DNA of 39,313 nt from a virus. Below are positions 590 to 36,498 of this stretch, in pieces; within the stretch, counting starts at the first letter, position 1, and the number at the start of each line of letters is the position of its first letter. Under the pieces are notes generated by a model. The model did no database searches and had not been told where the DNA came from. It worked only from the letters and a program-made list of their open reading frames with translations. The stretch lies in the UHGV virus genome UHGV-0145328, one strand, 5' to 3'. Made by a program: the position numbers and the translations under genes.

Positions 590-616
590 ATAAATTTCAG
601 GCAACAAAAAACCCAT
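590..616. repeat. attL core (27-bp direct repeat ATAAATTTCAGGCAACAAAAAACCCAT)
   Basis: Identical 27-mer recurs at 36472..36498; it lies just after the rcdA stop and next to the integrase gene. Confidence 0.85.
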
Positions 617-690: not shown

Positions 691-1743
691 TTACGGGGTA
701 ATGCCAACCGCTGCCGCCACTTTGTCGCCACTTGGCAGCGTTGCCAGAGGATTGAAACGGAGCGCCGTTTCTAGATGATCCGGTGCCAGATGTGCGTAAC
801 GCATAGTCATTTTTATATCGTGGTGTCCGAGAATTTTTTGTAAGGCCAGAATGTTTCCACCCGACATCATGAAGTGCGCCGCAAACGTATGGCGCAGAAC
901 GTGTGTGAGTTGACCGCGAGGGAGCACGATAGACGTTTTTTCCATCACGGATAAAAATTGAAAATAGCAGTCTGTGAAGAAATTGAACCCATCAAGCGCC
1001 ATGATCTCTTCGTAAAGCTCTTTACTGATAGGGATGCTTCTGTTTTTCTTCCCCTTCGTTCTGACAAAGGTAATTCGGTATTTGGTCACCTGTGAGCGGG
1101 TAAGATTTACGGCTTCACGCCAGCGTGCGCCTGTGCTTAAGCATATCTTAACTACCAGTGCCAGAATTGGGTCCTGACGTTTGCAATCAGCCAGCAATTC
1201 AACAATCTGCTCATGGGTAAGCCATGCCATCTCTTTTTCTGCGATGGTGAATTTTCGCATGTTCTCCAGTGGGTTCGGATACGACCATTCGCCCAGACGG
1301 GATAGTTCGCTAAAAACACTACTTAGATAGCTTTGCTCCAGGTTAATGGTGACCGGGCTTGCTCCTTTCTTCCATTTCTCGCTGAAGTAGATCTCGCCTG
1401 TCAGGCGTTTATCTCGATAGTGGGCAAACATTTTAGAGGTGAGATCGGTTGCAAGAGGATTGCCCAGAGCGTCAACCATCAACAGCAATTTGTCATAGAC
1501 ATGCTGCCCAGCTGTCAGAGATTTACCATGTAGTTTGAACCATAGCTCAACCACGTCTTTCAGTGTTCGACGATCCACTGATTCACCCAGCCAGGGCTTT
1601 GCTTCGGTTTCTTCCATCGTGTGGCGCTCAAAAGCCAGTGCTTCGCCTTTGGTGGCGAATTGTTTACGCACACGACGCCCACTTCGTCCGGCGGGGTAAC
1701 ATTCGCAAAGCCATTTCCCTGTGGTTAGTTTTCGTACTGCCAT
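691..1743 (-). CDS. int: Tyrosine integrase (P2 Int family)
   Basis: 350 aa; C-terminal catalytic region with HxxR and a terminal Tyr (…LRHTFAAHFMMSGGNILALQKILGHHDIKMTMRYAHLAPDH…); adjacent to attL. Confidence 0.9.
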   Translation of the reverse strand: MAVRKLTTGKWLCECYPAGRSGRRVRKQFATKGEALAFERHTMEETEAKPWLGESVDRRTLKDVVELWFKLHGKSLTAGQHVYDKLLLMVDALGNPLATDLTSKMFAHYRDKRLTGEIYFSEKWKKGASPVTINLEQSYLSSVFSELSRLGEWSYPNPLENMRKFTIAEKEMAWLTHEQIVELLADCKRQDPILALVVKICLSTGARWREAVNLTRSQVTKYRITFVRTKGKKNRSIPISKELYEEIMALDGFNFFTDCYFQFLSVMEKTSIVLPRGQLTHVLRHTFAAHFMMSGGNILALQKILGHHDIKMTMRYAHLAPDHLETALRFNPLATLPSGDKVAAAVGITP

Positions 1744-1825
1744 AAAAAGCCCTCATATCAGAGGGCTAAATTTAACTGTATATGTAACCAGTAATCAATG
1801 TGTGATTACTATGAAACATACATTG

Positions 1826-3502
1826 CTAAGCAACATGTAGTTCATCGTTGGCGGAAGTGGCTGCTTTGCGCTCCTGCTCAATAGCTAGAGACTCTCTATA
1901 TTCTTTCGCCTCTGCAAACATTGTCCAGTGGGCGTTGATGTTCATGTCTTCAATAACTGATTTGATTTCTTTTAAATTTACGTTAAAAAACTCTTTTCGT
2001 GAGTTAATTTTATTGACCTGCTTTTCGTTGAAAACTTTATGCAGATGGTTTTCTAATGATGGTGCATCATCACTATAAATCATCGCATGAACATCGAACG
2101 AAAAAGGAACACTAGCATCTCCGAGTTCACGAACACGATCAAGTGGTTCAAGGCGGCGTGTCATTCCAATTTTATATACATCTTCGCCAAATGAACCAAT
2201 ATTACTAATGATATAGACGTGGCCTGATCTGGTTTGTTGAGCCATAGAAATAGCTCGTTGATTTTTAGCTTCAGCTTCTTCATATTTTAACTGTAGTTCA
2301 GCTATTTTTTGCTCTAAAGCTAAGCGTTGTTCTTCATTTGCAAGCATAAGTTCTTTCGTTGCTTTATTTATAGCTTGCTGAATAGCTTTTTCTTCTTTTT
2401 CAGCTTCTTTTATCGCTTTTTCATATTCTCTACGAGCTCTTTCCTCTTCACGAAGCTGTTCTTTAATCCTTCTTTGCTCTTCTTTTTCTTCGAGCATAAT
2501 TTCATTAACTGCTACACCCCATTTTAGCTCGTTGAGTCTTGCCTGAAGATAGATGTCACTTATTTTTGCGGACCTAAAGGCAGAGCCATTGTAATTTACT
2601 AGTTGAAATGCATCTTTTATTTCTTGGGAAAGTTTTCCAAAATTGTTGTGTTTGACTTTTGATAAAATACTGTCAACTCTTCCATTGAAGGCATCCAAAA
2701 CAAAGTTTATGGCAGTATTACGCCTGTTTTGCTCAACATAATCACACGAAGCAGCTTTATTAGTTTTTATTAATGATTTGGTTAACTCTCTGGCTTTTTG
2801 TAATTCCTTGCCTGCATCTGTAAATTCATAATTTTCTGCCAGCTCATCAAGTACACTACGGTTAGGGATGATCCATTCATCACCATAACCTTCAATTTTA
2901 TTTTTCATTGATTTTGCAACTGCTTCATATTTTTCTGCAAACTCTTTAGCTTCATATGCTGAACCAGCAATCTCCTTTGCTCTTTCTTCTGCATCAGAAA
3001 TAATTTTTACTGCATTGTCATTAGCATTTGAGATTAGCTCATTTGCTTTATTATTAGCATTATCAAGACGTTCTTTGGCTTTCAGGCGTGCATCGCGAGC
3101 GTCTTTGGTGATTGCTATAGCTTCGCTATTAGCGTTGCTTATTGTCATCTGAGCTTGATAATTTGCTTCGTTTACTGTTTTAGCCGCCTTAATTTGGGCT
3201 TCATCTATTTTTTGCTTGGCTATTGAGTCCGCATTTTTTATCTTATTCTCTGCATCCATTACTGCGCTGTGCAATTCTTCGTATTGCCACAATGGTGCTG
3301 CTCGCCCTTCAAGCTCTGATAATTCTCGTACGGTCTGTGCTAGTTTTTCTTGATTTTCAATCAGTTGGTTAGAAAGGGCTATGTTGTTAGCTGTCAGGTT
3401 ATCTATAGCCGCTTTGTGTTTTTTACTTTGTTTAAATAATATTACAGCTAGAACAGGGGCGAGAAATGCTAATAAGAGTATAACGATGGCAAATGAATTC
3501 AT
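1826..3502 (-). CDS. Membrane-anchored coiled-coil protein with DUF4041-like region and C-terminal T5orf172 (GIY-YIG-like) domain; cargo gene
   Basis: N-terminal hydrophobic helix (SFAIVILLLAFLAPVLAVILF); long K/E/A-rich heptad regions; C-terminal block GHVYIISNIGSFGEDVYKIGMTRRLEPLDRVRELG...VPFSFDVHAMIYSDD typical of T5orf172; visibly AT-rich; co-oriented with cI and int. Confidence 0.7.
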   Translation of the reverse strand: MNSFAIVILLLAFLAPVLAVILFKQSKKHKAAIDNLTANNIALSNQLIENQEKLAQTVRELSELEGRAAPLWQYEELHSAVMDAENKIKNADSIAKQKIDEAQIKAAKTVNEANYQAQMTISNANSEAIAITKDARDARLKAKERLDNANNKANELISNANDNAVKIISDAEERAKEIAGSAYEAKEFAEKYEAVAKSMKNKIEGYGDEWIIPNRSVLDELAENYEFTDAGKELQKARELTKSLIKTNKAASCDYVEQNRRNTAINFVLDAFNGRVDSILSKVKHNNFGKLSQEIKDAFQLVNYNGSAFRSAKISDIYLQARLNELKWGVAVNEIMLEEKEEQRRIKEQLREEERARREYEKAIKEAEKEEKAIQQAINKATKELMLANEEQRLALEQKIAELQLKYEEAEAKNQRAISMAQQTRSGHVYIISNIGSFGEDVYKIGMTRRLEPLDRVRELGDASVPFSFDVHAMIYSDDAPSLENHLHKVFNEKQVNKINSRKEFFNVNLKEIKSVIEDMNINAHWTMFAEAKEYRESLAIEQERKAATSANDELHVA

Positions 3503-3522
3503 TTTAAAATCCTTTTACTATA

Positions 3523-4119
3523 TTAATTCGAGACTATTGTACTTCTTATACAAGCAACCACTTCAATATCAGAAAATGCACATTCAAAGCTATTCTCTGC
3601 TGTTGTAATTTTAATCATTCCTTTAGGAAGCCTTGTGATTTTTCGAATGGAATAGGTTCCGTCGATATTGATTAACCAGTTTCCATCAAGTACTTCAGAA
3701 AATTTTTGATCACAAATGTATGTGACGAGTCCATCCTGAACAACAATTGGTGATGAAAGGTTTGCAGGAAGAAATGATGAATCGAAGACATATGAACCGT
3801 CTTCAATCATTTTGCCTGCGGCAAGGCGAAACTTAACAAGCTCTTCTGTAGCTGCTGTCAGCGAGCTTTGCTTAAGGCCTTGTCCGGTAGTTAACCATTT
3901 GAGGGAGGTTCCTGTTTCAAGAGCACATTGGATTATCCAGTCAGCAGGAAATGTATCCCGCAAATACCTGTTCGCTAGTGTGCTTTTTGATACTTCCAAG
4001 TGATCAGCTAAAGCCTGTCGTGTCGTAAAGCCATAGGCTTCGACTAATCGCTCAATCGCAGCCTTACCACCTTTATTGGGATTTATTTTGATCTCACTTG
4101 GGTACTTTGATGTTGACAT
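3523..4119 (-). CDS. cI: Immunity repressor CI (186-type)
   Basis: 198 aa with N-terminal HTH-like region, divergent from apl/cII; position between int and apl matches the 186 lysogeny module. Confidence 0.75.
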   Translation of the reverse strand: MSTSKYPSEIKINPNKGGKAAIERLVEAYGFTTRQALADHLEVSKSTLANRYLRDTFPADWIIQCALETGTSLKWLTTGQGLKQSSLTAATEELVKFRLAAGKMIEDGSYVFDSSFLPANLSSPIVVQDGLVTYICDQKFSEVLDGNWLINIDGTYSIRKITRLPKGMIKITTAENSFECAFSDIEVVACIRSTIVSN

Positions 4120-4140
4120 ATCTCTTTTGCGATCCTAGTA
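4112..4140 (+). promoter_or_regulatory. Candidate lytic promoter pR (TTGACA-17 bp-TAGTAT)
   Basis: Consensus -35 TTGACA at 4112..4117 and -10 TAGTAT at 4135..4140 with 17-bp spacer, upstream of apl. Confidence 0.55.
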
Positions 4141-4148
4141 TCAGTTTT

Positions 4149-4164
4149 GTACCCAATTGGGTAC
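4149..4164. promoter_or_regulatory. Perfect 16-bp palindrome GTACCCAATTGGGTAC; candidate repressor operator
   Basis: Perfect inverted repeat just downstream of the putative pR -10; a half-site-like TTGGGTAC also occurs at 4098..4105. Confidence 0.5.
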
Positions 4165-4215
4165 TTGTCACGATTACTACAGGCTCACCACAAGCCAATA
4201 GGAGATGTTGCATCA

Positions 4216-4436
4216 TGACCACTAACATTTCAATAACTCTGAATACGCCACACGTCACAATCGAGCGTTATAGCGAACTTACTGGTCTTTCAATCGACAC
4301 AATCAACGATATGTTGGCGGATGGTCGCATTCCTCGGCATCGTCTTCGTAAAGACAAGAAAAGAGAAAAGGTAATGATCAACCTTGCTGCTCTTACCGTT
4401 GATGCACTTACTGATTGCAATGTTGTATTCAACTAG
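4216..4436 (+). CDS. apl: Excisionase / transcriptional regulator Apl (Cox-like)
   Basis: 73 aa from the ATG at 4216 with upstream AGGAG; small basic protein first in the rightward operon; the longer ORF from 4098 is probably an over-extension. Confidence 0.7.
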
Positions 4437-10120: not shown

Positions 10121-10233
10121 TTTTGTCAATAGACGCTTGTTTTTACTAATCAAAAAGGGTTACATATGAGTGAGAGGCGATGTCAATCAGATATCGCCTT
10201 GTTTTTTGTCAAGAAAAGAATAATAGGCTAAAA

Positions 10234-10911
10234 ATGAAAATTAATAATGTAGCGTTACCAATATCTCTTGCTGTAATCCTAACTGGTTGCGTGCCACATG
10301 CTTCTAACCGAAATATCACTGCTATTGAAGTGGTGAAGCCTGCTATTGGGCAAAGTGCTACCGCCTACATGGGCGATCCCATTATCACATCTGCTACTGG
10401 ATTTAAAACGGACGTACTAGAACTTGGTGCGGCTAATGGTGCATTGTCTTCTATCGCTGCTGGTACATATTGCAGTGAGGGGAATGGAATTTACCGCAAT
10501 TATCATAACCCTCAAGCTGTTGCGTTAAAAAATCTCTATGGGCAAATCGGTAACTATGTTGATTATGTTAGTTACGATGCTGCAAAAAATGAGATATCAC
10601 CGCCAAATGGTACTTCTTATACTGCATCAGAAATTTCTATCAAACGTGTTCCTGATGGGCTGTGTCGAGTTAGTAACTCATTGGTTAAGACTATCGAATA
10701 CAATGGAAATGCAGGCGGTGTAATGAAGTTCACCTATCGTGAATTTGCAAACGATATGGCTCGTGCAGCATTTACAACAGATTTTTCTGTAGATTCTAAG
10801 GGAAGTGACGTTATCGCTTACAAAGGTGCCAAGTTCAAAGTGAACAAGGCTGATAACTCGTCTATTTCTTATACAATTATTTCTGGCTTTGACAAGGCTG
10901 TCACGTTCTAG
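10234..10911 (+). CDS. Lipoprotein of unknown function (moron)
   Basis: Signal peptide plus lipobox (MKINNVALPISLAVILTGC); AT-rich; followed by a hairpin terminator. Confidence 0.65.
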   Translation: MKINNVALPISLAVILTGCVPHASNRNITAIEVVKPAIGQSATAYMGDPIITSATGFKTDVLELGAANGALSSIAAGTYCSEGNGIYRNYHNPQAVALKNLYGQIGNYVDYVSYDAAKNEISPPNGTSYTASEISIKRVPDGLCRVSNSLVKTIEYNGNAGGVMKFTYREFANDMARAAFTTDFSVDSKGSDVIAYKGAKFKVNKADNSSISYTIISGFDKAVTF

Positions 10912-11255: not shown

Positions 11256-12170
11256 ATGCCATACCAATTGGTAGAGCTTAGCCCCGTAGCTAACGATCTT
11301 GAACAGTTAGGAACCAAAGAGAAGTTTTGGTTCTATTTCTCCGATGACACTGTAAATTTGCAGTTGTTTAAGTACTCTAGGCCAGGTACTGGCGAGCATT
11401 GGTCTGAAAAGTGTGCTGCTGAGTTATGTCATTTGCTTAACATTCCACATGCTAGCTATGATTTGGCGCGATACAATGGTCGATTCGGTGTGGTGACTCA
11501 GAATATCATTCCATCTGGTTTCCGGATGGTAATGGGAAATGAAGTGCTTCACAGTTCGACATTCGATTATCCTGGGCCTTTACAAGCCGGGGAAAAGCCG
11601 GTAAGGGTCAGAGAACACACTGTCACAAGGGTCTTGGGTTGTTTAGATAGGGAATCTATCAAGCCTCCTCCGAGTGTATATGATCTAACCGGGCTAAATG
11701 CAGCAGATGTATTTTGTGGATATTTGATGCTCGATGCACTTGTGAGTAATCAAGATCGCCACCATGAAAATTGGGCAATCATGCTTAACAATGAAACTGG
11801 TGAGCAGTTTTTGTGTCCAACATACGATCATGCCGCTAGTTTAGGAAGGGAGATGTTAGATGATGAGCGTAACGAACGGCTTAATACTAAAGATAAAAAT
11901 CGACAAATCCCATGTTTTGTAAGAAAAGCTCGCTCTGAGCTATTCAAAGCAAAAACTGATAAAAAGCCCTTGCTGACTGTTGAAGCATTTCAACATGCAG
12001 TTGAAGGGAGAGTTGCCGCTCGCGACCATTGGTTAGGTAAGTTGAGCGTTTTAACAGAAGATTCCATTACAGATGTGTTTAACCAAGTGCCTTCATCGTG
12101 TATATCCGACAGTGCACGTAGATTTGCAACGTTAATGGTAATGGAAAATCGCAGAAGGTTACTAGAATGA
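11256..12170 (+). CDS. HipA-like Ser/Thr kinase core-domain protein
   Basis: 304 aa with LGTKEKFWF (cf. HipA VAGAQEKT), VSNQDRHHENWAIM (cf. HipA catalytic GATDGHAKNFSV) and CPTYDHAASLG (cf. HipA TPFYDIIS); AT-rich cargo. Confidence 0.6.
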   Translation: MPYQLVELSPVANDLEQLGTKEKFWFYFSDDTVNLQLFKYSRPGTGEHWSEKCAAELCHLLNIPHASYDLARYNGRFGVVTQNIIPSGFRMVMGNEVLHSSTFDYPGPLQAGEKPVRVREHTVTRVLGCLDRESIKPPPSVYDLTGLNAADVFCGYLMLDALVSNQDRHHENWAIMLNNETGEQFLCPTYDHAASLGREMLDDERNERLNTKDKNRQIPCFVRKARSELFKAKTDKKPLLTVEAFQHAVEGRVAARDHWLGKLSVLTEDSITDVFNQVPSSCISDSARRFATLMVMENRRRLLE

Positions 12171-12907
12171 CTAATACAAACTCCGTTTACGTCGCATGGC
12201 AGGCACCAGATACCAGAGACTGGCATGTTGTTGGTAACTTGCAAGAGCGCAAATCGGGGTATGTTTTCAGGTATACCAAAGGTGCTCTTAAATCTTCTAA
12301 ATTTACAAAGTTTAGCGGCATGAGTGATGTTCGTGAAACTTATGTATCGGAAGAATTGTTTCCTCTTTTTAAAAATCGCCTTTTATCACCGAGACGTCCA
12401 GAGTATCCGAGTTTCATTAAATGGCTTGGATTTGAAGAAGATAAGGTAAATCCTATCGATATTCTTGCTCGCTCGGGAGGCTTACGAAGCACTGATCAGC
12501 TGCAGATTTTCAAAAAAATTGATTTTGATTCTGATGGTAACTTTGAGCATTTTTTCTTCTTACATGGACTTGGTTACTTGAATAGCTTAGCTAATGCTCG
12601 TGTATCTGAATTGAAACCGGGGCAAATTTTGCGTCTTTGCTTGGATCTTCAAAATGAATACGATGGGGATGCTGTTGTCGTTCGTGCAGATAAACCAGCT
12701 GAAATCGTTGGTTACTGCCCTAGGTATTTAAGTAATGACATCAAGAAGATGTTATTGGATGATCCAAAATCAATCACTTTAACGGTCGAAAAGATTAGCG
12801 ATGATGCTCCTCATAACTATCGGTTATTATGTAAATTATCAGGGGTACTAAGCCAAGCCTGTCAATCGACGCTGATTCCTCAAGATGAGTTTGAACCTAT
12901 TGAGTAA
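12167..12907 (+). CDS. Partner protein of the kinase; N-terminus possibly HipA N-subdomain-like (HipS-like), C-terminal domain unknown
   Basis: 246 aa; start overlaps the kinase stop (ATGA); N-terminal VYVAWQAPDTRDWHVVGNLQERKSGYVFRYTKGAL loosely resembles the HipA N-terminus. Confidence 0.5.
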   Translation: MTNTNSVYVAWQAPDTRDWHVVGNLQERKSGYVFRYTKGALKSSKFTKFSGMSDVRETYVSEELFPLFKNRLLSPRRPEYPSFIKWLGFEEDKVNPIDILARSGGLRSTDQLQIFKKIDFDSDGNFEHFFFLHGLGYLNSLANARVSELKPGQILRLCLDLQNEYDGDAVVVRADKPAEIVGYCPRYLSNDIKKMLLDDPKSITLTVEKISDDAPHNYRLLCKLSGVLSQACQSTLIPQDEFEPIE

Positions 12908-21256: not shown

Positions 21257-21695
21257 ACTGCAGAAGGTGGACGACTGGCTGAGTGCCTTGCTGGCGAATC
21301 TGGAACCAGCCACGAGAAGCCGCATGATGCGCCAGCTGGCGCAGGAACTGCGCCGGACACAGCAGCAGAATATCAGGATGCAGCGCAATCCAGATGGCAG
21401 CAGTTATGAACCGCGCAGGGTAACAGCACGCAGCAAGAAGGGGCGCATCAAACGTCAGATGTTTGCAAAGCTGCGCACCACAAAATACCTGAAAACTGCC
21501 GCCAGCGCCGATTCTGCCAGCGTACAGTTTGAAGGCAAGGTGCAGCGTATTGCCCGTGTTCACCATTACGGCCTGCGTGATCGCGTCAGTCGCAAAGGAC
21601 CGGAGGTCCGTTACGTAGAGCGCCGCCTGCTGGGTGTAAATGATGATGTTGAGGCAATGACCCGCGACATGATTCTGCAATGGCTGGCGGGGTGA
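21249..21695 (+). CDS. S: Tail completion protein (P2 gpS-like)
   Basis: 148 aa, position after R. Confidence 0.75.
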   Translation: MAELQKVDDWLSALLANLEPATRSRMMRQLAQELRRTQQQNIRMQRNPDGSSYEPRRVTARSKKGRIKRQMFAKLRTTKYLKTAASADSASVQFEGKVQRIARVHHYGLRDRVSRKGPEVRYVERRLLGVNDDVEAMTRDMILQWLAG

Positions 21696-21741
21696 CTTTG
21701 ATAACCGTAATCAGAATTTTGTCAGTTCGGTTTAATGTGAG

Positions 21742-23070
21742 TCAATTGGTAAAAATTCTACTCTGCTCACCATAGCTGTCCTTTGCTTCGTTAATCAGAT
21801 CCTCCCATGGCCATTTTATGGTTACATATTTTCGATAAATTAAAATGGTTCTGTCGATAGCAGTGACCTCATCAGTTGCATCATTGTAGGAAAGAACTAA
21901 CCCTCTATCGTCACTATCAACCTGTAACTCTTCAATTTTTTGAAGTACAGTTCGCAGATTCCCTTTTAATATTCGACTTTGTCTTCTTGACGCAATTTTA
22001 AAAATGGTATCTAACTCTAATCCTTGAATGAGTTCTTTATCGGATGAGTCCATTATTACAGCCATGGCATGAGCATAAATGCCAGTGGTTTCTGTTCTTT
22101 TACGTATTCCTGATGATATATCTTTAGCAAATTTTTGATATCGAGAATTTAATTGTTCAGCATATTTCATGGCTGCATCAACGAATTTTTCTTGATCATC
22201 TAACATCGTTAATGTTGTACATTCCTCATCAATTCCTGTCTCGTCAAGAATGTTTAAGGCTAGTTGTTGTAAAATCCCAACATTACCATAGCAATCATCA
22301 AGGATGCATCTCTTTATATGATCTGAGAACTTAACTTTTAAAGTTTCTGATCCACTTATTATTACTTGTTCAAGATCGGCTCTAGACCATGATATGGGAA
22401 TTTCTTCTATGCGAGAACCAAGGTCAGAATTTAAATAAATTAGTAGGTTTGTTTTTGTCCAAACACCAATGATTACGAAAAAACAACCATAATCCCAAAG
22501 CGCCTTTAAGTCATAAGCAAATATTTGTCGTTCACGAGTGTTTAAGTAGTGAAAATCTTCAATAACTACTTTTCTTCCTGCTTCGTTAATTATTTCTGCA
22601 ATAAATCTCAAATCATTAATATCTTGACCAACATTTCCTTTTTTTATTACCTCCTCTTCAGAGGTCTCAAGTCCAAATTTAACCTTTAGTTTTGCTATAA
22701 GACCAATGCCTCCTGCAGCAGAGCCCTCCATTACGCCTTTAATTGTATCTTTTTCGGTTCTCTCTAGCACAAGGCTTATACCTAATTGAGATAGAATATC
22801 TATATATATATCTAAAACGGTTGTCTTTAATCTGCATTGTACAACAATAGCATTAGGTATGTTCTTTTGTCTTAACCATGACTTACCACATTTGGATTCC
22901 CCTCTTAAGGCGAGATGTATTGGTCGGCGTAATTTTCTACTGATTTCCTTATCAAGATTTCCTCTGTCTACATATGAATCAGCAAGAATCGTTGGTGAAA
23001 TACCAAAAACTTCGTGTGTTTGTTTCTTCATGATGGCCTCACTATCCGTTTTGTACTGTTTATCACACAA
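21742..23070 (-). CDS. P-loop NTPase (AAA+/STAND-like) of unknown function; antisense cargo between S and V
   Basis: Walker A GESKCGKS and Walker B-like VVIEDF; 442 aa; AT-rich; opposite strand to the flanking late operons. Confidence 0.65.
   Translation of the reverse strand: MCDKQYKTDSEAIMKKQTHEVFGISPTILADSYVDRGNLDKEISRKLRRPIHLALRGESKCGKSWLRQKNIPNAIVVQCRLKTTVLDIYIDILSQLGISLVLERTEKDTIKGVMEGSAAGGIGLIAKLKVKFGLETSEEEVIKKGNVGQDINDLRFIAEIINEAGRKVVIEDFHYLNTRERQIFAYDLKALWDYGCFFVIIGVWTKTNLLIYLNSDLGSRIEEIPISWSRADLEQVIISGSETLKVKFSDHIKRCILDDCYGNVGILQQLALNILDETGIDEECTTLTMLDDQEKFVDAAMKYAEQLNSRYQKFAKDISSGIRKRTETTGIYAHAMAVIMDSSDKELIQGLELDTIFKIASRRQSRILKGNLRTVLQKIEELQVDSDDRGLVLSYNDATDEVTAIDRTILIYRKYVTIKWPWEDLINEAKDSYGEQSRIFTN
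23052..23069. promoter_or_regulatory. Late-promoter dyad TGT-N12-ACA upstream of V
   Basis: TGTACTGTTTATCACACA about 50 bp upstream of the V start; overlaps the 5' end of the antisense NTPase gene. Confidence 0.5.
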
Positions 23071-24945: not shown

Positions 24946-25543
24946 TCTGCTGCCACCGGGTTCAACGCCACTGGAGCGCCGACTGGCGCAAACCTGCAAC
25001 GGGATTTCTGATCTGCAGGTGTCACTGCGTGACTTGTGGAATCCGGCAACCTGTCCGGTCAGTTTCCTGCCTTATCTCGCCTGGGCGTTCTCTGTGGATC
25101 GCTGGGACGAGGGCTGGACAGAAAGCGTCAAACGCCAGGTAGTGAAGGATGCTTTTTATATTCATCAGCACAAAGGAACCACCAGTGCCGTACGGCGGGT
25201 GGTGGAGCCGTTCGGCTTCCTGATCCGCATTATTGAGTGGTGGCAGACCGGAGAAACACCGGGCACGTTTCGCCTGGACATTGGTGTGCAGGACCAGGGC
25301 ATCACTGAAGATACCTATCTGGAACTTGAGCGACTGATAAGCGATGCCAAACCATGTAGCCGTCACATGATCGGCATGTCCATCAATCTGCAGACCAGCG
25401 GCCCGCATTGGGTGGGAGCCGTCAGTTATCTTGGCGAAGAAATCACGATCTATCCGTATATCAACGAAACAATTATTTCCGGCGGCACCGCGCATGAAGG
25501 CGGGGCGGTCCATGTTATTGACACAATGAGAGTGAATCCATGA
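24938..25543 (+). CDS. I: Baseplate / tail-fibre attachment protein (P2 gpI-like)
   Basis: 201 aa; synteny. Confidence 0.75.
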   Translation: MNSLLPPGSTPLERRLAQTCNGISDLQVSLRDLWNPATCPVSFLPYLAWAFSVDRWDEGWTESVKRQVVKDAFYIHQHKGTTSAVRRVVEPFGFLIRIIEWWQTGETPGTFRLDIGVQDQGITEDTYLELERLISDAKPCSRHMIGMSINLQTSGPHWVGAVSYLGEEITIYPYINETIISGGTAHEGGAVHVIDTMRVNP

Positions 25544-27126
25544 GCACAAAATTTTATACCCTGCTGACGGATATTGGCGCGGCGAAACTTGCCAGCGCCG
25601 CCGCGCTCGGTGTGCCGCTAAAAATTACCCATATGGCGGTGGGCGATGGCGGCGGAGCATTGCCAACGCCGGACGCAAAGCAGACGGCACTGGTAAATGA
25701 GAAACGCCGGGCTGCGCTGAATATGCTCTATATCGACCCGCAGAACAGCAGCCAGATTATTGCTGAACAGGTGATCCCTGAAAATGAGGGGGGTTGGTGG
25801 ATACGTGAAGTGGGTCTGTTTGATGAGTCCGGGGCATTGATTGCCGTAGGCAACTGCCCGGAAAGCTATAAGCCGCAACTGGCTGAAGGCAGCGGGCGCA
25901 CCCAGACCGTGCGCATGGTGCTGATTACCAGCAGTACGGACAATATCACCCTGAAAATCGACCCTGCTGTAGTGCTGGCAACCCGTAAATACGTGGATGA
26001 TGAAGTCCTGGAATTAAAGCTGTATGTGGATGACCAGATGAGAAACCACATTGCCGCACAAGATCCTCATACCCAGTATGCGCAGAAACATAATCCGACA
26101 TTTACCGGAGAACCAAAAGCGCCGACGCCTGCAGCAGGAAATAACACCACGCGGATTGCGACCACTGAGTTTGTTCAGGCCGCTATTACTGCTCTGATTA
26201 ACGGTGCGCCAGCCACGCTGGATACACTGAAAGAAATTGCCGCAGCCATTAACAATGACCCGAAATTCAGTACCACCATTAACAATGCGCTGGCACTAAA
26301 AGCGCCGCTGTCGAGTCCGGCACTCACCGGAACGCCAACAGCACCTACTGCGGCGCAGTCGGTCAACAATACACAGATTGCCACTACGGCTTTTGTGAAA
26401 TCGGCGATTGCAGGAATGGTGGGTTCTGCACCTGCGGCACTGGATACACTGAACGAACTGGCGGCGGCACTGGGGAATGATCCGAACTTTGCCACGACAA
26501 TGCTTAATGCGCTGGCAGGTAAACAACCGCTGGACAATACGCTTACCAATTTGAGTGGAAAGGATGTAGCTGGTCTTCTCACATACCTTGGTTTGGGAGA
26601 AGGTTCGGCATTACCCGTTGGCGTGCCTGTTCCGTGGCCTTCCGCCACTCCGCCAACAGGCTGGCTGAAATGCAACGGTGCCGCTTTTTCTGCTGAAGAA
26701 TACCCGGAACTGGCAAAGGCTTATCCGACAAATAAATTGCCTGATTTACGTGGTGAGTTTATTCGTGGCTGGGATGACGGGCGTGGAGTGGATGCGGGAC
26801 GTGCCTTGCTAAGTCTTCAGGATGACTCTTTTGAAGCGCACAGGCATGAGTCCTTTTTTTACGCGGGTATTTCTCGCAATGAAACACCATTAAAAAATCT
26901 TCCAAGTTCAGACGAGATGCTGACTTTAAGTTCTACAACTAATGCCTTGTCCCCGGACGGTATTGATGCCACTAATTCGTTAATTGGTAATGATGATTAC
27001 AACTGTCTGATTGAAGGAAATAAAAATAACAAACGAACAGCGACGGGGTTGAGTACCAGTATTGTCGGTGCAGCAGAGACACGCCCACGTAATATTTCAT
27101 TTAATTACATTGTGAGGGCTGCATGA
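25540..27126 (+). CDS. H: Tail fibre protein (P2 gpH-like); C-terminal part inside an invertible segment
   Basis: 528 aa with repetitive Ala/Thr-rich middle; the C-terminus after ...TYLGLGE is replaceable by the antisense segment at 28123..28469. Confidence 0.85.
   Translation: MSTKFYTLLTDIGAAKLASAAALGVPLKITHMAVGDGGGALPTPDAKQTALVNEKRRAALNMLYIDPQNSSQIIAEQVIPENEGGWWIREVGLFDESGALIAVGNCPESYKPQLAEGSGRTQTVRMVLITSSTDNITLKIDPAVVLATRKYVDDEVLELKLYVDDQMRNHIAAQDPHTQYAQKHNPTFTGEPKAPTPAAGNNTTRIATTEFVQAAITALINGAPATLDTLKEIAAAINNDPKFSTTINNALALKAPLSSPALTGTPTAPTAAQSVNNTQIATTAFVKSAIAGMVGSAPAALDTLNELAAALGNDPNFATTMLNALAGKQPLDNTLTNLSGKDVAGLLTYLGLGEGSALPVGVPVPWPSATPPTGWLKCNGAAFSAEEYPELAKAYPTNKLPDLRGEFIRGWDDGRGVDAGRALLSLQDDSFEAHRHESFFYAGISRNETPLKNLPSSDEMLTLSSTTNALSPDGIDATNSLIGNDDYNCLIEGNKNNKRTATGLSTSIVGAAETRPRNISFNYIVRAA
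26588..26602. repeat. Left inversion crossover site (15-bp TTGGTTTGGGAGAAG)
   Basis: Exact inverted copy at 28470..28484; encodes GLGE in H and in the antisense alternative fibre segment. Confidence 0.65.
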
Positions 27127-27728
27127 TGTATAACGCCATCTTAAATAGTAAATTTATTGCCACAAAGGCAGGAGAGATTACCGTTTATAACTATGACAGT
27201 GAGACACGGGAGTATATTTCTGCATCAACTGAATATCTTGCTGTGGGTGTCGGTATCCCTGCATATTCCTGTTTAGATGCTCCTGGCACACATAAGGCTG
27301 GTTATGCAATCTGCCGTTCGGCAGATTTAAACTCATGGGAATATGTGCCAGACCATCGCGGTGAAGTTGTCTATAACACCGAAACGGGAGAATCAAAAGA
27401 AATCACAGCTCCGGGTGATTACCCTGAAAATACAACCACTACCGTCCCGTTAACGCCATACGATAAATGGGATGGTGAGAAATGGGTGACAGATACTGAG
27501 GCACAACACGGTGCCGCAGTAGAAGCGGCAGAAGCACAGCGCCAGTCACTGATTGATGCAGCAATGGCTTCCATTAGTCTGATTCAGCTGAAATTACAGG
27601 CCGGGCGGAAACTGACGCAGGCAGAAACAACCCGGCTTAACTCTGTGCTGGATTACATTGACGCGGTGACAGCAACAGATACCAGCACCGCGCCGGATAT
27701 CATCTGGCCTGAACTGCCGGAGGCGTAG
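27123..27728 (+). CDS. G: Tail fibre assembly chaperone (P2 gpG-like)
   Basis: 201 aa ending in the conserved …DTSTAPDIIWPELPEA motif. Confidence 0.8.
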   Translation: MMYNAILNSKFIATKAGEITVYNYDSETREYISASTEYLAVGVGIPAYSCLDAPGTHKAGYAICRSADLNSWEYVPDHRGEVVYNTETGESKEITAPGDYPENTTTTVPLTPYDKWDGEKWVTDTEAQHGAAVEAAEAQRQSLIDAAMASISLIQLKLQAGRKLTQAETTRLNSVLDYIDAVTATDTSTAPDIIWPELPEA

Positions 27729-28119
27729 GCCATTCAATATCTGGAGCACTGGAGGTATCAACCAGTTCCAGTGCGTCCAGATAATCCAGCCACAAATTAT
27801 ATTGCGCCAGTTCCTCACCTTTCAGACGACCAATAGCCGCTTTACCAGGCCATTGCCTGCTGTTCATGTGCTCGTTGGCTTCATTAATAAGTTTTCCTTT
27901 TTTCAACTCTGCCAATGCAATAAGGTTTTCTTTTGATAAAGGTGGTTGCTCTGTCAAAACCGGATATCCCTCCTGATTGCTGACTATTTTCATGCCATTA
28001 TCCTGACCATCCAGTAGTGACAGCCATTCATCCGTGGTTATCTCAACAGCATCTGAAGGTGCTTTATTTAAATCGGTAAAAAAACCATTTTCTTTTTGTG
28101 AATAGAAGTATCTGTCCAT
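27700..28119 (-). CDS. Alternative tail fibre assembly chaperone (inverted orientation)
   Basis: 139 aa ending …DTSSAPDIEWPTPPA, same C-terminal motif as G, on the opposite strand. Confidence 0.75.
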   Translation of the reverse strand: MDRYFYSQKENGFFTDLNKAPSDAVEITTDEWLSLLDGQDNGMKIVSNQEGYPVLTEQPPLSKENLIALAELKKGKLINEANEHMNSRQWPGKAAIGRLKGEELAQYNLWLDYLDALELVDTSSAPDIEWPTPPAVQAR

Positions 28120-28122
28120 TTA

Positions 28123-28524
28123 TCAATCTCCAAAAGCAATCCAGTAAGCAAAAGGATTTATTCCTTGCTCAGTCACAGATGACATTAGGGAAAATTGCGA
28201 TGGTGAAACAGGTAATGCTGCAAAACTAACCATTGTTGACACACCTGACCGTGCATTATCGTACGATGCAACAACACAATAATTGGTATTGCTGAAAGAT
28301 ATCGGCAGGGTGATATTTACAGGTGAGCCTAATGGCCCTGATGCTGATATTCCCATTTGAATGATGGTTCCATCAGGCAATTTTCTCCAGCGATTAGAAC
28401 TCGGATTTCTTTTCCAGGATGACATATCCGGTATCTGATTTTCTCCTGTGCCCACATCCCTTTTCGCCGCTTCTCCCAAACCAACGTTTAAGAAAATGCA
28501 GCGATTACGACTAACTGGCATCAT
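28123..28524 (-). CDS. Alternative tail-fibre C-terminal segment (expressed as an H fusion after inversion)
   Basis: Antisense ORF encoding …VGLGEAAKRDVG… across the crossover repeat; fibre-like Ser/Thr/Gly-rich composition. Confidence 0.6.
   Translation of the reverse strand: MMPVSRNRCIFLNVGLGEAAKRDVGTGENQIPDMSSWKRNPSSNRWRKLPDGTIIQMGISASGPLGSPVNITLPISFSNTNYCVVASYDNARSGVSTMVSFAALPVSPSQFSLMSSVTEQGINPFAYWIAFGD
28470..28484. repeat. Right inversion crossover site (inverted copy of 26588..26602)
   Basis: CTTCTCCCAAACCAA is the reverse complement of TTGGTTTGGGAGAAG; about 70 bp upstream of the invertase gene. Confidence 0.65.
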
Positions 28525-28551
28525 CCCCGGTTTTTATTCAGGGGATTGATC

Positions 28552-29118
28552 ATGCTTATTGGCTATGTACGCGTGTCAACAAATGACCAGAACACCGATT
28601 TGCAACGTAATGCACTGAACTGCGCGGGATGTGAGCGGATTTTTGAGGACAAAATCAGTGGCACTAAGTCCGACAGACCGGGGCTTAAAAAACTGCTCAG
28701 GACACTATCGGCAGGTGACACACTGGTTGTCTGGAAGCTGGACAGGTTGGGGCGCAGTATGCGGCATCTTGTTACGCTGATAGAAGAGTTGCGCCAGCGC
28801 GGCGTGAATTTCCGAAGCCTGACTGACAGTATTGATACCAGTACCCCAATGGGCCGTTTCTTTTTTCATGTCATGGGTGCCCTGGCTGAAATGGAACGCG
28901 AACTGATAGTTGAACGTACCAGGGCAGGGCTGGCTGCAGCTCGTGCTAAAGGCAGAGTAGGTGGACGCCGTCCTAAGTTGACTACCGAACAGTGGGCACA
29001 GATTGGGCGTTTACTCGAGGCCGGAGAATCAAGACAGCGTATTGCACTGATTTTTGATGTAGGCGTTTCTACCATTTATAGAAAATTTCCGGCAAATAAG
29101 AGCAATGAATCTCCCTGA
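28552..29118 (+). CDS. Serine DNA invertase (Hin/Gin/Cin/Pin family)
   Basis: MLIGYVRVSTNDQNTDLQRNAL…TLVVWKLDRLGRS…GRFFFHVMGALAEMERELIVERT closely matches the Hin/Gin family; C-terminal HTH. Confidence 0.9.
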   Translation: MLIGYVRVSTNDQNTDLQRNALNCAGCERIFEDKISGTKSDRPGLKKLLRTLSAGDTLVVWKLDRLGRSMRHLVTLIEELRQRGVNFRSLTDSIDTSTPMGRFFFHVMGALAEMERELIVERTRAGLAAARAKGRVGGRRPKLTTEQWAQIGRLLEAGESRQRIALIFDVGVSTIYRKFPANKSNESP

Positions 29119-36471: not shown

Positions 36472-36498
36472 ATAAATTTCAGGCAACAAAAAACCCAT
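36472..36498. repeat. attR core (27-bp direct repeat)
   Basis: Identical to 590..616. Confidence 0.85.

Follow-up and report, generated by a model that had tools for sequence, protein, structure and literature searches.

A SNIPE-family (PD-λ-1) gene located between the cI repressor and integrase genes of a P2/186-like prophage

The window analyzed here is the whole 39,313-nucleotide stretch of the viral genome UHGV-0145328. Its minus strand carries, at positions 1826..3502, a gene for a 558-aa protein that, from its open reading frame, its PADLOC and BLASTP matches and its RefSeq names, is almost certainly a member of the SNIPE (PD-λ-1) family. The gene is very probably prophage cargo encoding an anti-phage membrane nuclease that would be expressed in the lysogen. 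PD-λ-1 emerged from functional screening of E. coli strains (Vassallo et al. 2022, PMC9519451) and was later named SNIPE, an inner-membrane GIY-YIG nuclease that cuts the DNA of siphoviruses as their genomes are injected (Saxton et al., Nature 2026, PMC13190303). Because the family, its mechanism and its N-terminal diversity were published between 2022 and 2026, the finding is already explained and opens no new question; a preliminary description of this DNA had called the function of the architecture unknown to its reader, a statement overtaken by the mechanism since published under the name SNIPE.

The gene belongs to a P2/186-like prophage of 35.9 kb that lies within the window, ends in a 27-bp direct repeat (590-616 and 36472-36498) and has an insertion point adjoining rcdA. 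On the minus strand, the order of genes is cI (3523..4119), the 558-aa open reading frame and int (691..1743). The cI gene encodes a 198-aa repressor allele of the 186 type (Pfam Phage_CI_repr and Phage_CI_C), and int encodes a tyrosine integrase (Pfam Int_N and Phage_integrase) that forms the conserved left flank of a variable slot and shares 99% identity or more with its counterparts in 80 IMG/VR loci. The GC content is 0.34-0.39 over positions ~1800-3800 as compared to 0.46-0.50 on both flanks. The open reading frame, the Pfam matches and the GC profile confirm the preliminary description, which had an AT-rich 558-aa gene wedged between cI and int on the same strand. Its premise that int directly follows the repressor gene in 186 was also correct, since in the phage 186 record (NC_001317), cI (22433-23011) and int (21423-22433) overlap by 1 nt inside the pL/pE lysogenic operon. 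The reading frame starts at the first ATG past a stop, with an AAGGA Shine-Dalgarno sequence 7 nt upstream. When estimated from composition, stops make up about 7% of random codons at the composition of this frame, and an open frame of 558 codons is, on the same estimate, far beyond what is expected by chance.

Two PADLOC profiles of PD-Lambda-1 matched the protein, PDLC03976 with an E-value of 2.4e-120 (aa 106-550 against profile positions 36-481 of 491) and PDLC03977 with an E-value of 7.9e-117, and standard defence annotators would label the gene PD-Lambda-1. The RefSeq products for the exact gene are named "DUF4041 domain-containing protein" or "SNIPE associated domain-containing protein". 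As a reference, we used the 500-aa CDS annotated "PD-lambda-1" in the lambdoid phage PhiR26_1, which we took as the SNIPE protein studied experimentally because all nine residues named in the paper (E223, N250, L253, W257, E264, K305, I308, T319, and E414) are present in it at the stated positions. In a BLASTP comparison with this reference, the window protein showed 50% identity over 293 aa (aa 265-555, E 5e-77). The identity to the validated SNIPE is confined to the C-terminal 53% of the protein, with a nuclease core about 80% identical, and BLASTP detected no significant similarity between aa 1-264 and the N-terminus of the reference. The family is large, as 3,368 clusters at 50% identity were retrieved with an E-value of 1e-3 or lower, many of them aligned over the full length.

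The domain organization, encoded throughout on the minus strand, was examined with an AlphaFold2 model built on an alignment of 70 diverse homologues (pLDDT 82.9). The model predicts one continuous helix from residues 2 to 203, a helical module at about 217-306, two helices at 316-387 and 390-425, and an α/β domain at 427-520. A single N-terminal transmembrane helix is predicted at aa 5-23 (3434..3490), where the Kyte-Doolittle mean over 19 residues reaches 3.16, this being the sole segment of the protein above 1.6. The sequence KQSKKHK follows immediately, with four lysines within the seven residues after the helix, and from the positive-inside rule, together with the PhoA/LacZ topology of the reference SNIPE, we infer an N-out, C-in orientation. 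An equivalent transmembrane segment was found in 102 of 128 diverse family representatives; the published survey reported a transmembrane helix in 66% of SNIPE homologues (PMC13190303). The helix is followed by a predicted alanine-rich coiled-coil stalk (aa 24-203, 2894..3433) that resembles ATP synthase subunit b and DivIVA, as judged from the AlphaFold2 helix and from profile matches.

The DUF4041 domain spans aa 267-322 (2537..2704) and was matched by PF13250 with an E-value of 3.1e-12 and a score of 46.6 bits against a cut-off of 27; in the current Pfam, PF13250 bears the name "SNIPE". Conserved basic columns were observed in and around this domain (R238, K242, K282, K284, K313, R322, and K327). 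A long, charged helical hairpin predicted at aa 316-425 (2228..2557) joins DUF4041 to the nuclease and aligns with the "downstream α-helix" of the reference SNIPE. The GIY-YIG nuclease domain itself (aa 427-520, 1943..2224) was recognized by Pfam as T5orf172 (E 3e-17), overlapped by a MUG113 match (E 4e-20). Its residue E484, encoded by the codon at 2051-2053, aligns with the catalytic E414 of the reference. Among the 70 homologues, with identities down to 34%, Y430, K444, G446, R449, R450, E459, E484, N497, and N500 were invariant, and H472, H488, K503, and E504 were nearly so. The HMM searches thus returned DUF4041, T5orf172, MUG113, and PADLOC PD-Lambda-1, and the GIY-YIG catalytic residues, whose retention had been left to be verified, are conserved across diverse homologues. 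The membrane anchor, long helical regions and C-terminal T5orf172/GIY-YIG module that had been recognized from the letters alone were recovered by the hydropathy, AlphaFold2 and Pfam analyses, and the modeled architecture matches the published description of an elongated protein composed of a transmembrane helix, DUF4041, a helix and a GIY-YIG domain.

Foldseek gave no significant match in the PDB, the only compact matches being to Slx1 through a weak local GIY-YIG similarity (E 0.25). An AlphaFold2 prediction of the C-terminal 143 aa alone, made with no alignment, had a pLDDT of 60. No PDB sequence was matched by the protein in a phmmer search. Among solved structures, the family profile matched ATP synthase subunit b best, along the coil (E 9e-4). 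Adapters of the ATP synthase b and DivIVA type are likewise built from a transmembrane helix followed by a long alanine-rich coil; the likeness to ATP synthase b is one of coiled-coil sequence only, and nothing points to a role in ATP synthase.

When the N-terminal 241 aa were used alone as a query, only fragments of the same DUF4041 subfamily were matched, indicating that this module appears nowhere else. [quoted passage not shown] As the ATP-synthase-b-like class is already tabulated, the divergent N-terminus of the window protein falls within the documented diversity of the family. Docking to ManYZ cannot, however, be assumed for a protein whose N-terminal region is unlike that of the reference, and both its docking partner and its target range may differ.

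Variation within the subfamily of 558-aa proteins is highest in the transmembrane helix, in the tail and in the first coil (residues 1-60 and 81-120), and positions 201-500 are 88-98% conserved. This conservation bears on the possibility that the gene has decayed or is inactive and serves no function at present, which we regard as improbable. Of two S. thermophilus homologues sharing 98.5% identity, one was active and the other inactive (PMC12322248), so that activity is not readable from sequence, and IS elements were inserted in the region in two E. coli genomes. Nevertheless, 164 complete E. coli genomes and many genera retain an undisrupted 558-aa frame, none of the catalytic residues varies, and the subfamily is invariant at 78-86% of positions 201-525. 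An intact frame with invariant residues is the pattern expected under purifying selection.

The mechanism that we propose for the window protein is transferred from the ECOR26 SNIPE for the parts that are conserved, namely the transmembrane anchor, DUF4041, the helix and the nuclease. ECOR26 SNIPE (RCP76574.1) is a single-pass protein with its N-terminus out, as determined with PhoA and LacZ, and is constitutively located at the membrane (PMC13190303). Radiolabelled λ DNA was cleaved by SNIPE while being injected, with an induced prophage left untouched (PMC13190303). [quoted passage not shown] DUF4041 mediates DNA binding, its deletion abolished defence, and the E414A substitution abolished both defence and toxicity (PMC13190303). 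Gain-of-function mutations of SNIPE sit in DUF4041 and Bas14 escapers map to the Bas14 tape measure protein; mutations at such SNIPE positions strengthened binding to the tape measure protein, W257R turning a weak defence against Bas14-type phages into a strong one (PMC13190303). No myovirus or podovirus of the BASEL set was restricted by SNIPE (PMC13190303).

The window protein and ECOR26 SNIPE share the order of N-terminal transmembrane helix, coil, DUF4041, long helix and GIY-YIG domain, are both prophage-borne and both keep the catalytic glutamate (E414 and E484, respectively). They differ in length (558 aa versus 500 aa) and in genomic context, as the ECOR26 gene lies between ren and rha of a lambdoid prophage and has its own promoter, whereas the window gene lies inside the lysogenic operon of a P2/186-like myovirus. 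A second validated homologue, PD-Lambda-1 EU01 of S. thermophilus, protects against siphoviruses (PMC12322248). It belongs to the same family by the DefenseFinder/PADLOC definition and, unlike the prophage-borne window gene, has a chromosomal locus in a Gram-positive host.

By analogy with ECOR26 SNIPE, the membrane tether of the window protein would keep the nuclease off the host chromosome. During injection by a siphovirus, contact of DUF4041 with the incoming DNA and the tape measure protein complex would be followed by cleavage of this DNA by the nuclease, and the infection would fail while the cell survives. It is reasonably probable that the window protein acts in this way on siphovirus DNA, through recognition of the tape measure protein, like the reference. 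Its anti-phage activity, target range and docking partner are thus all put forward by extension from the homologue. Three of the positions facing the tape measure protein are changed with respect to the reference (E223 to S292, N250 to Q320, and W257 to K327), and one may speculate that K327, a naturally basic residue at the site of the W257R substitution, and S292 hint at a preferred set of phages different from that of the reference. Since the prophage that carries the gene is a P2/186-like myovirus, a class spared by the reference SNIPE, the cargo should not block the spread of its own prophage. Zorya and Kiwa are likewise membrane-localized and act at or near genome injection; they are multi-component systems that sense perturbation of the envelope, and their proteins are unrelated and show no homology to the window protein.

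It might alternatively be argued that the protein is an abortive-infection or toxin-type nuclease, released or activated by infection, which degrades both host and phage DNA and kills the cell. SNIPE devoid of its transmembrane helix is highly toxic, as it binds and cuts the chromosome in a nuclease-dependent manner (PMC13190303), and a release mechanism is therefore conceivable. Moreover, abortive infection is the mode of many prophage cargo nucleases, and the N-terminal region of the window protein is unlike that of the reference. The defence conferred by SNIPE was nonetheless direct, infected cells surviving at high MOI, unlike those of the abortive-infection control PD-λ-3 (PMC13190303), and the nuclease, DUF4041 and transmembrane helix are all conserved in the window protein. 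We thus consider this alternative unlikely and retain direct cleavage of entering DNA by a membrane-anchored nuclease as the preferred reading.

The gene is separated from cI by a spacer of only 20 nt (3503..3522), which contains its Shine-Dalgarno sequence (3514..3510), and the same spacing of 20 nt was found in the Klebsiella and Citrobacter copies. In a promoter scan, nothing promoter-like was detected in this spacer, and promoter-like sites were fewer than in shuffled sequence. Upstream of cI, a putative lysogenic promoter resembling pL (TTGAAA-17-CAACAT, minus strand, 4205..4233) occupies a position that matches that of the curated pL of 186 (TTGCGA-17-CATGAT) and, by this positional homology, is presumed to be the source of a cI-gene transcript. 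From this geometry, the gene is likely to be co-transcribed with cI and, lying 20 nt past it, is probably made constitutively in lysogens from pL. In that case, the host of the prophage would be constitutively protected, as a first line of defence, against siphoviruses that attempt entry.

For int, co-transcription is less assured, given the terminator-like hairpin that separates it from the gene. The 82-nt spacer (1744..1825) folds into two hairpins with a minimum free energy of -32.1 kcal/mol (z = -5.0), the second of which (1767..1748) consists of a 7-bp GC stem and U5, runs to the int AUG and gave a terminator-like match. Read-through into int may thus be attenuated. The spacer is conserved from 1744 to about 1805 in sibling prophages carrying other cargo, and this int-proximal part therefore belongs to the int module.

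The content of the slot between cI and int was surveyed in 80 IMG/VR loci selected for an integrase at least 99% identical to that of the window. Apl and cII were almost invariant across these loci, and cI was 43-73% identical in most of them. The gap between cI and int ranged from 401 to 2,634 bp, and clustering gave about 15-20 architectures; 41 loci had a gap of about 410 bp with only small ORFs. The other cargo included, according to PADLOC or Pfam, Old (E 9e-235), two KAP-NTPase types of PDC-S20 (E 1e-171 and 7e-78), an AriA/Old-like ATPase (E 2e-23), PDC-M18A+B and PDC-M11A+B. Several other cargo proteins had no PADLOC or Pfam match. By this variable content between conserved flanks, the slot is a defence hotspot of the prophage. 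The preliminary description had regarded the placement of the gene as typical of defence or superinfection exclusion, in agreement with both the SNIPE homology and the defence systems found in sibling slots.

The 558-aa gene was present in 14 of the 14 loci with the 198-aa cI allele, including phage vB_EcoM-813R9 and the prophage of E. coli MS8345, and was paired with no other cI allele among the loci examined. The window is not the MS8345 prophage itself, as the two differ in the gpA-portal hotspot and in the tail-fibre region. In the comparison of loci, homology to the window stops at 1801-1825, right past the stop codon of the gene, and resumes either inside cI (3867-3911) or at the cI start (4106-4112). 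From these breakpoints, the cargo is exchanged as a unit with some or all of cI, and this also accounts for the extension of the low-GC tract into cI. The same arrangement of the 198-aa cI, the 558-aa gene and int, with the same spacing, was found in Klebsiella and Citrobacter prophages with protein identities of 83-85%, indicating that the association is old and not the result of a recent insertion.

Variable, defence-rich cargo between conserved genes of P2-like prophages is already known from previous studies (Rousset 2022, PMC9122126; Vassallo 2022; NAR 2026, PMC13586616). These P2-like hotspot papers report a cI-integrase hotspot for K139-like Vibrio phages and an "integrase-primase" hotspot that holds 8% of P2 systems. 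The classical E. coli P2 hotspots are the gpA-portal locus and the tail (Z/fun) locus, whereas the slot is here located between cI and int, with the immunity type moving along with the cargo. We did not find a strict linkage between cI allele and cargo stated in the accessible P2-hotspot literature; as far as these sources go, this linkage and a handful of unannotated cargo families go slightly beyond what has been published. More tentatively, the ATP-synthase-b-like stalk, unrelated in sequence to the N-terminus of the reference, may find its docking site at some inner-membrane entry route distinct from ManYZ, which would give another target range. Separately, recombination within cI may move the repressor gene and the defence gene jointly, as a single "immunity plus defence" cassette; we put both forward as possibilities that are rather doubtful. 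If such cassette exchange were true, the immunity type of a prophage would predict its defence cargo.

The exchange pattern of the slot also weighs on whether the gene could be a selfish homing endonuclease of the T5orf172 GIY-YIG type, inserted between cI and int and devoid of any role in defence. T5orf172 and GIY-YIG domains are found in phage homing endonucleases, and the gene is AT-rich relative to its flanks. We rejected this explanation as very improbable since the protein has a membrane anchor and DUF4041, with a full-length match to a validated defence family. In addition, the content of the slot is swapped together with part or all of cI and for unrelated cargo, which argues for recombination of modules and not for site-specific homing, and other genera keep the gene at the same spacing. 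The idea of a coiled-coil protein with a structural, cell-division or chromosome-segregation role is still harder to defend and was dismissed as extremely improbable: the GenBank phage records ON470620 and OM835953 do annotate it as a "chromosome segregation ATPase", and NCBIfam gave weak DivIVA, V-ATPase E and SMC matches over the coils, but these were all below threshold, by 200-700 bits relative to the curated cut-offs, and were rejected as compositional matches to coiled-coil sequence only, while Pfam detected no P-loop or ATPase domain and the specific matches are to DUF4041 and GIY-YIG.

What this analysis adds to the published family is modest: a survey of what occupies the cI-int slot in 186-like E. 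coli prophages, with cargo linked to the cI allele, several cargo families of this slot without a PADLOC or Pfam match, and a natural variant that could be used to probe how the N-terminal adapter sets specificity. The SNIPE-family gene was found in 164 of 5,426 complete E. coli genomes, and being common, it bears on the prediction of phage host range and on the choice of therapeutic phages. Close relatives were also observed in Klebsiella, Citrobacter, Salmonella, and Enterobacter.

The region extending from apl to int, equivalent to positions 1826–4110 of the window, was compared among IMG/VR loci L006–L085, whose integrase is at least 99% identical to that of the window. Approximately 15–20 distinct gene sets were found in the slot between cI and int, and each of these sets was accompanied by its own cI allele. 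Homology to the window is lost directly 3' of the stop codon of the cargo and restarts within cI or at its start. The position of these boundaries suggests that defence cargo and immunity type are swapped as one unit, and they thus appear to be exchanged together as a single cassette. Certain cI alleles of the slot are about 307–318 aa long. A cI-like protein of 307 aa is encoded in L018 (746–1669, counted within the region extracted after apl) and also in L012, and at least one allele of this length contains two tandem CI HTH domains, as indicated by sequence inspection and by double blastn hits on window positions 3892–4072.

Several cargo families of the slot had no match in PADLOC or Pfam. 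These include two-protein cargos of 349 and 201 aa (L056:1033–2689) and of 342 and 226 aa (L068/L072), coiled-coil proteins of 314–355 aa with C-terminal TM helices (L004, L005, L044, and L080), and cargos of 488 aa (L037:712–2178) and 354 aa (L073:741–1805), the coordinates in L056, L037, and L073 being counted within the region extracted after apl. One unmatched cargo type is a pair made up of a ~345-aa soluble protein and a ~200-aa multi-TM protein. As their neighbours in the slot include Old, PDC-S20, and SNIPE, among others, these families are candidates for undescribed defence genes.

For the spacer that separates int from the SNIPE-like gene (window 1744–1829, minus strand), a fold of −32.1 kcal/mol (z −5.0) was predicted that contains two hairpins, of which the second is a GC stem followed by U5 that reaches the int start codon. 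The int-proximal part of this spacer (1744 to ~1805) is kept in sibling prophages that carry other cargo. The spacer may attenuate int expression in lysogens. Phage 186 is devoid of such a spacer.

In two complete E. coli genomes, NZ_CP116094.1 (H32) and NZ_CP075487.1 (H43), the cI-SNIPE-int stretch (regions matching window 1700–4200) was interrupted by an IS element, ISVsa5 or IS1A. The SNIPE-like protein is labelled "chromosome segregation ATPase" in GenBank phage records (ON470620.1, 27790–29466; OM835953.1, 27415–29019) and its homologues "vacuolar-type H+-ATPase subunit H" by JGI, but it has no ATPase domain and both labels are misannotations stemming from its coiled-coil composition.

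The prophage, about 35.9 kb long, lies between rcdA and ybjL and is flanked on both sides by a 27-bp direct repeat, ATAAATTTCAGGCAACAAAAAACCCAT (window 590–616 and 36472–36498), that constitutes the att core. At the classical P2 gpA-portal hotspot, we found the candidate defence pair PDC-M03 A and B (11256–12170 and 12167–12907, plus strand; E 2e-122 and 7e-93), the A component showing a weak HipA_C-like match and the B component a HIRAN domain. An adjacent ORF of 243 aa (10180–10911, plus strand) gave no match. In this region the prophage differs from that of E. coli MS8345, to which it is otherwise closely related.

Finally, an invertible tail-fibre cassette was located at 27123–29118. Downstream of the expressed tail fibre (25540–27126) and its assembly gene (27123–27728), an alternative assembly gene (27700–28119) and an alternative fibre C-terminus (28123–28524), both inverted on the minus strand, adjoin a serine invertase gene (28546–29118, plus strand; Resolvase and HTH_7 domains). 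This arrangement implies host-range switching in the manner of Mu and P1.
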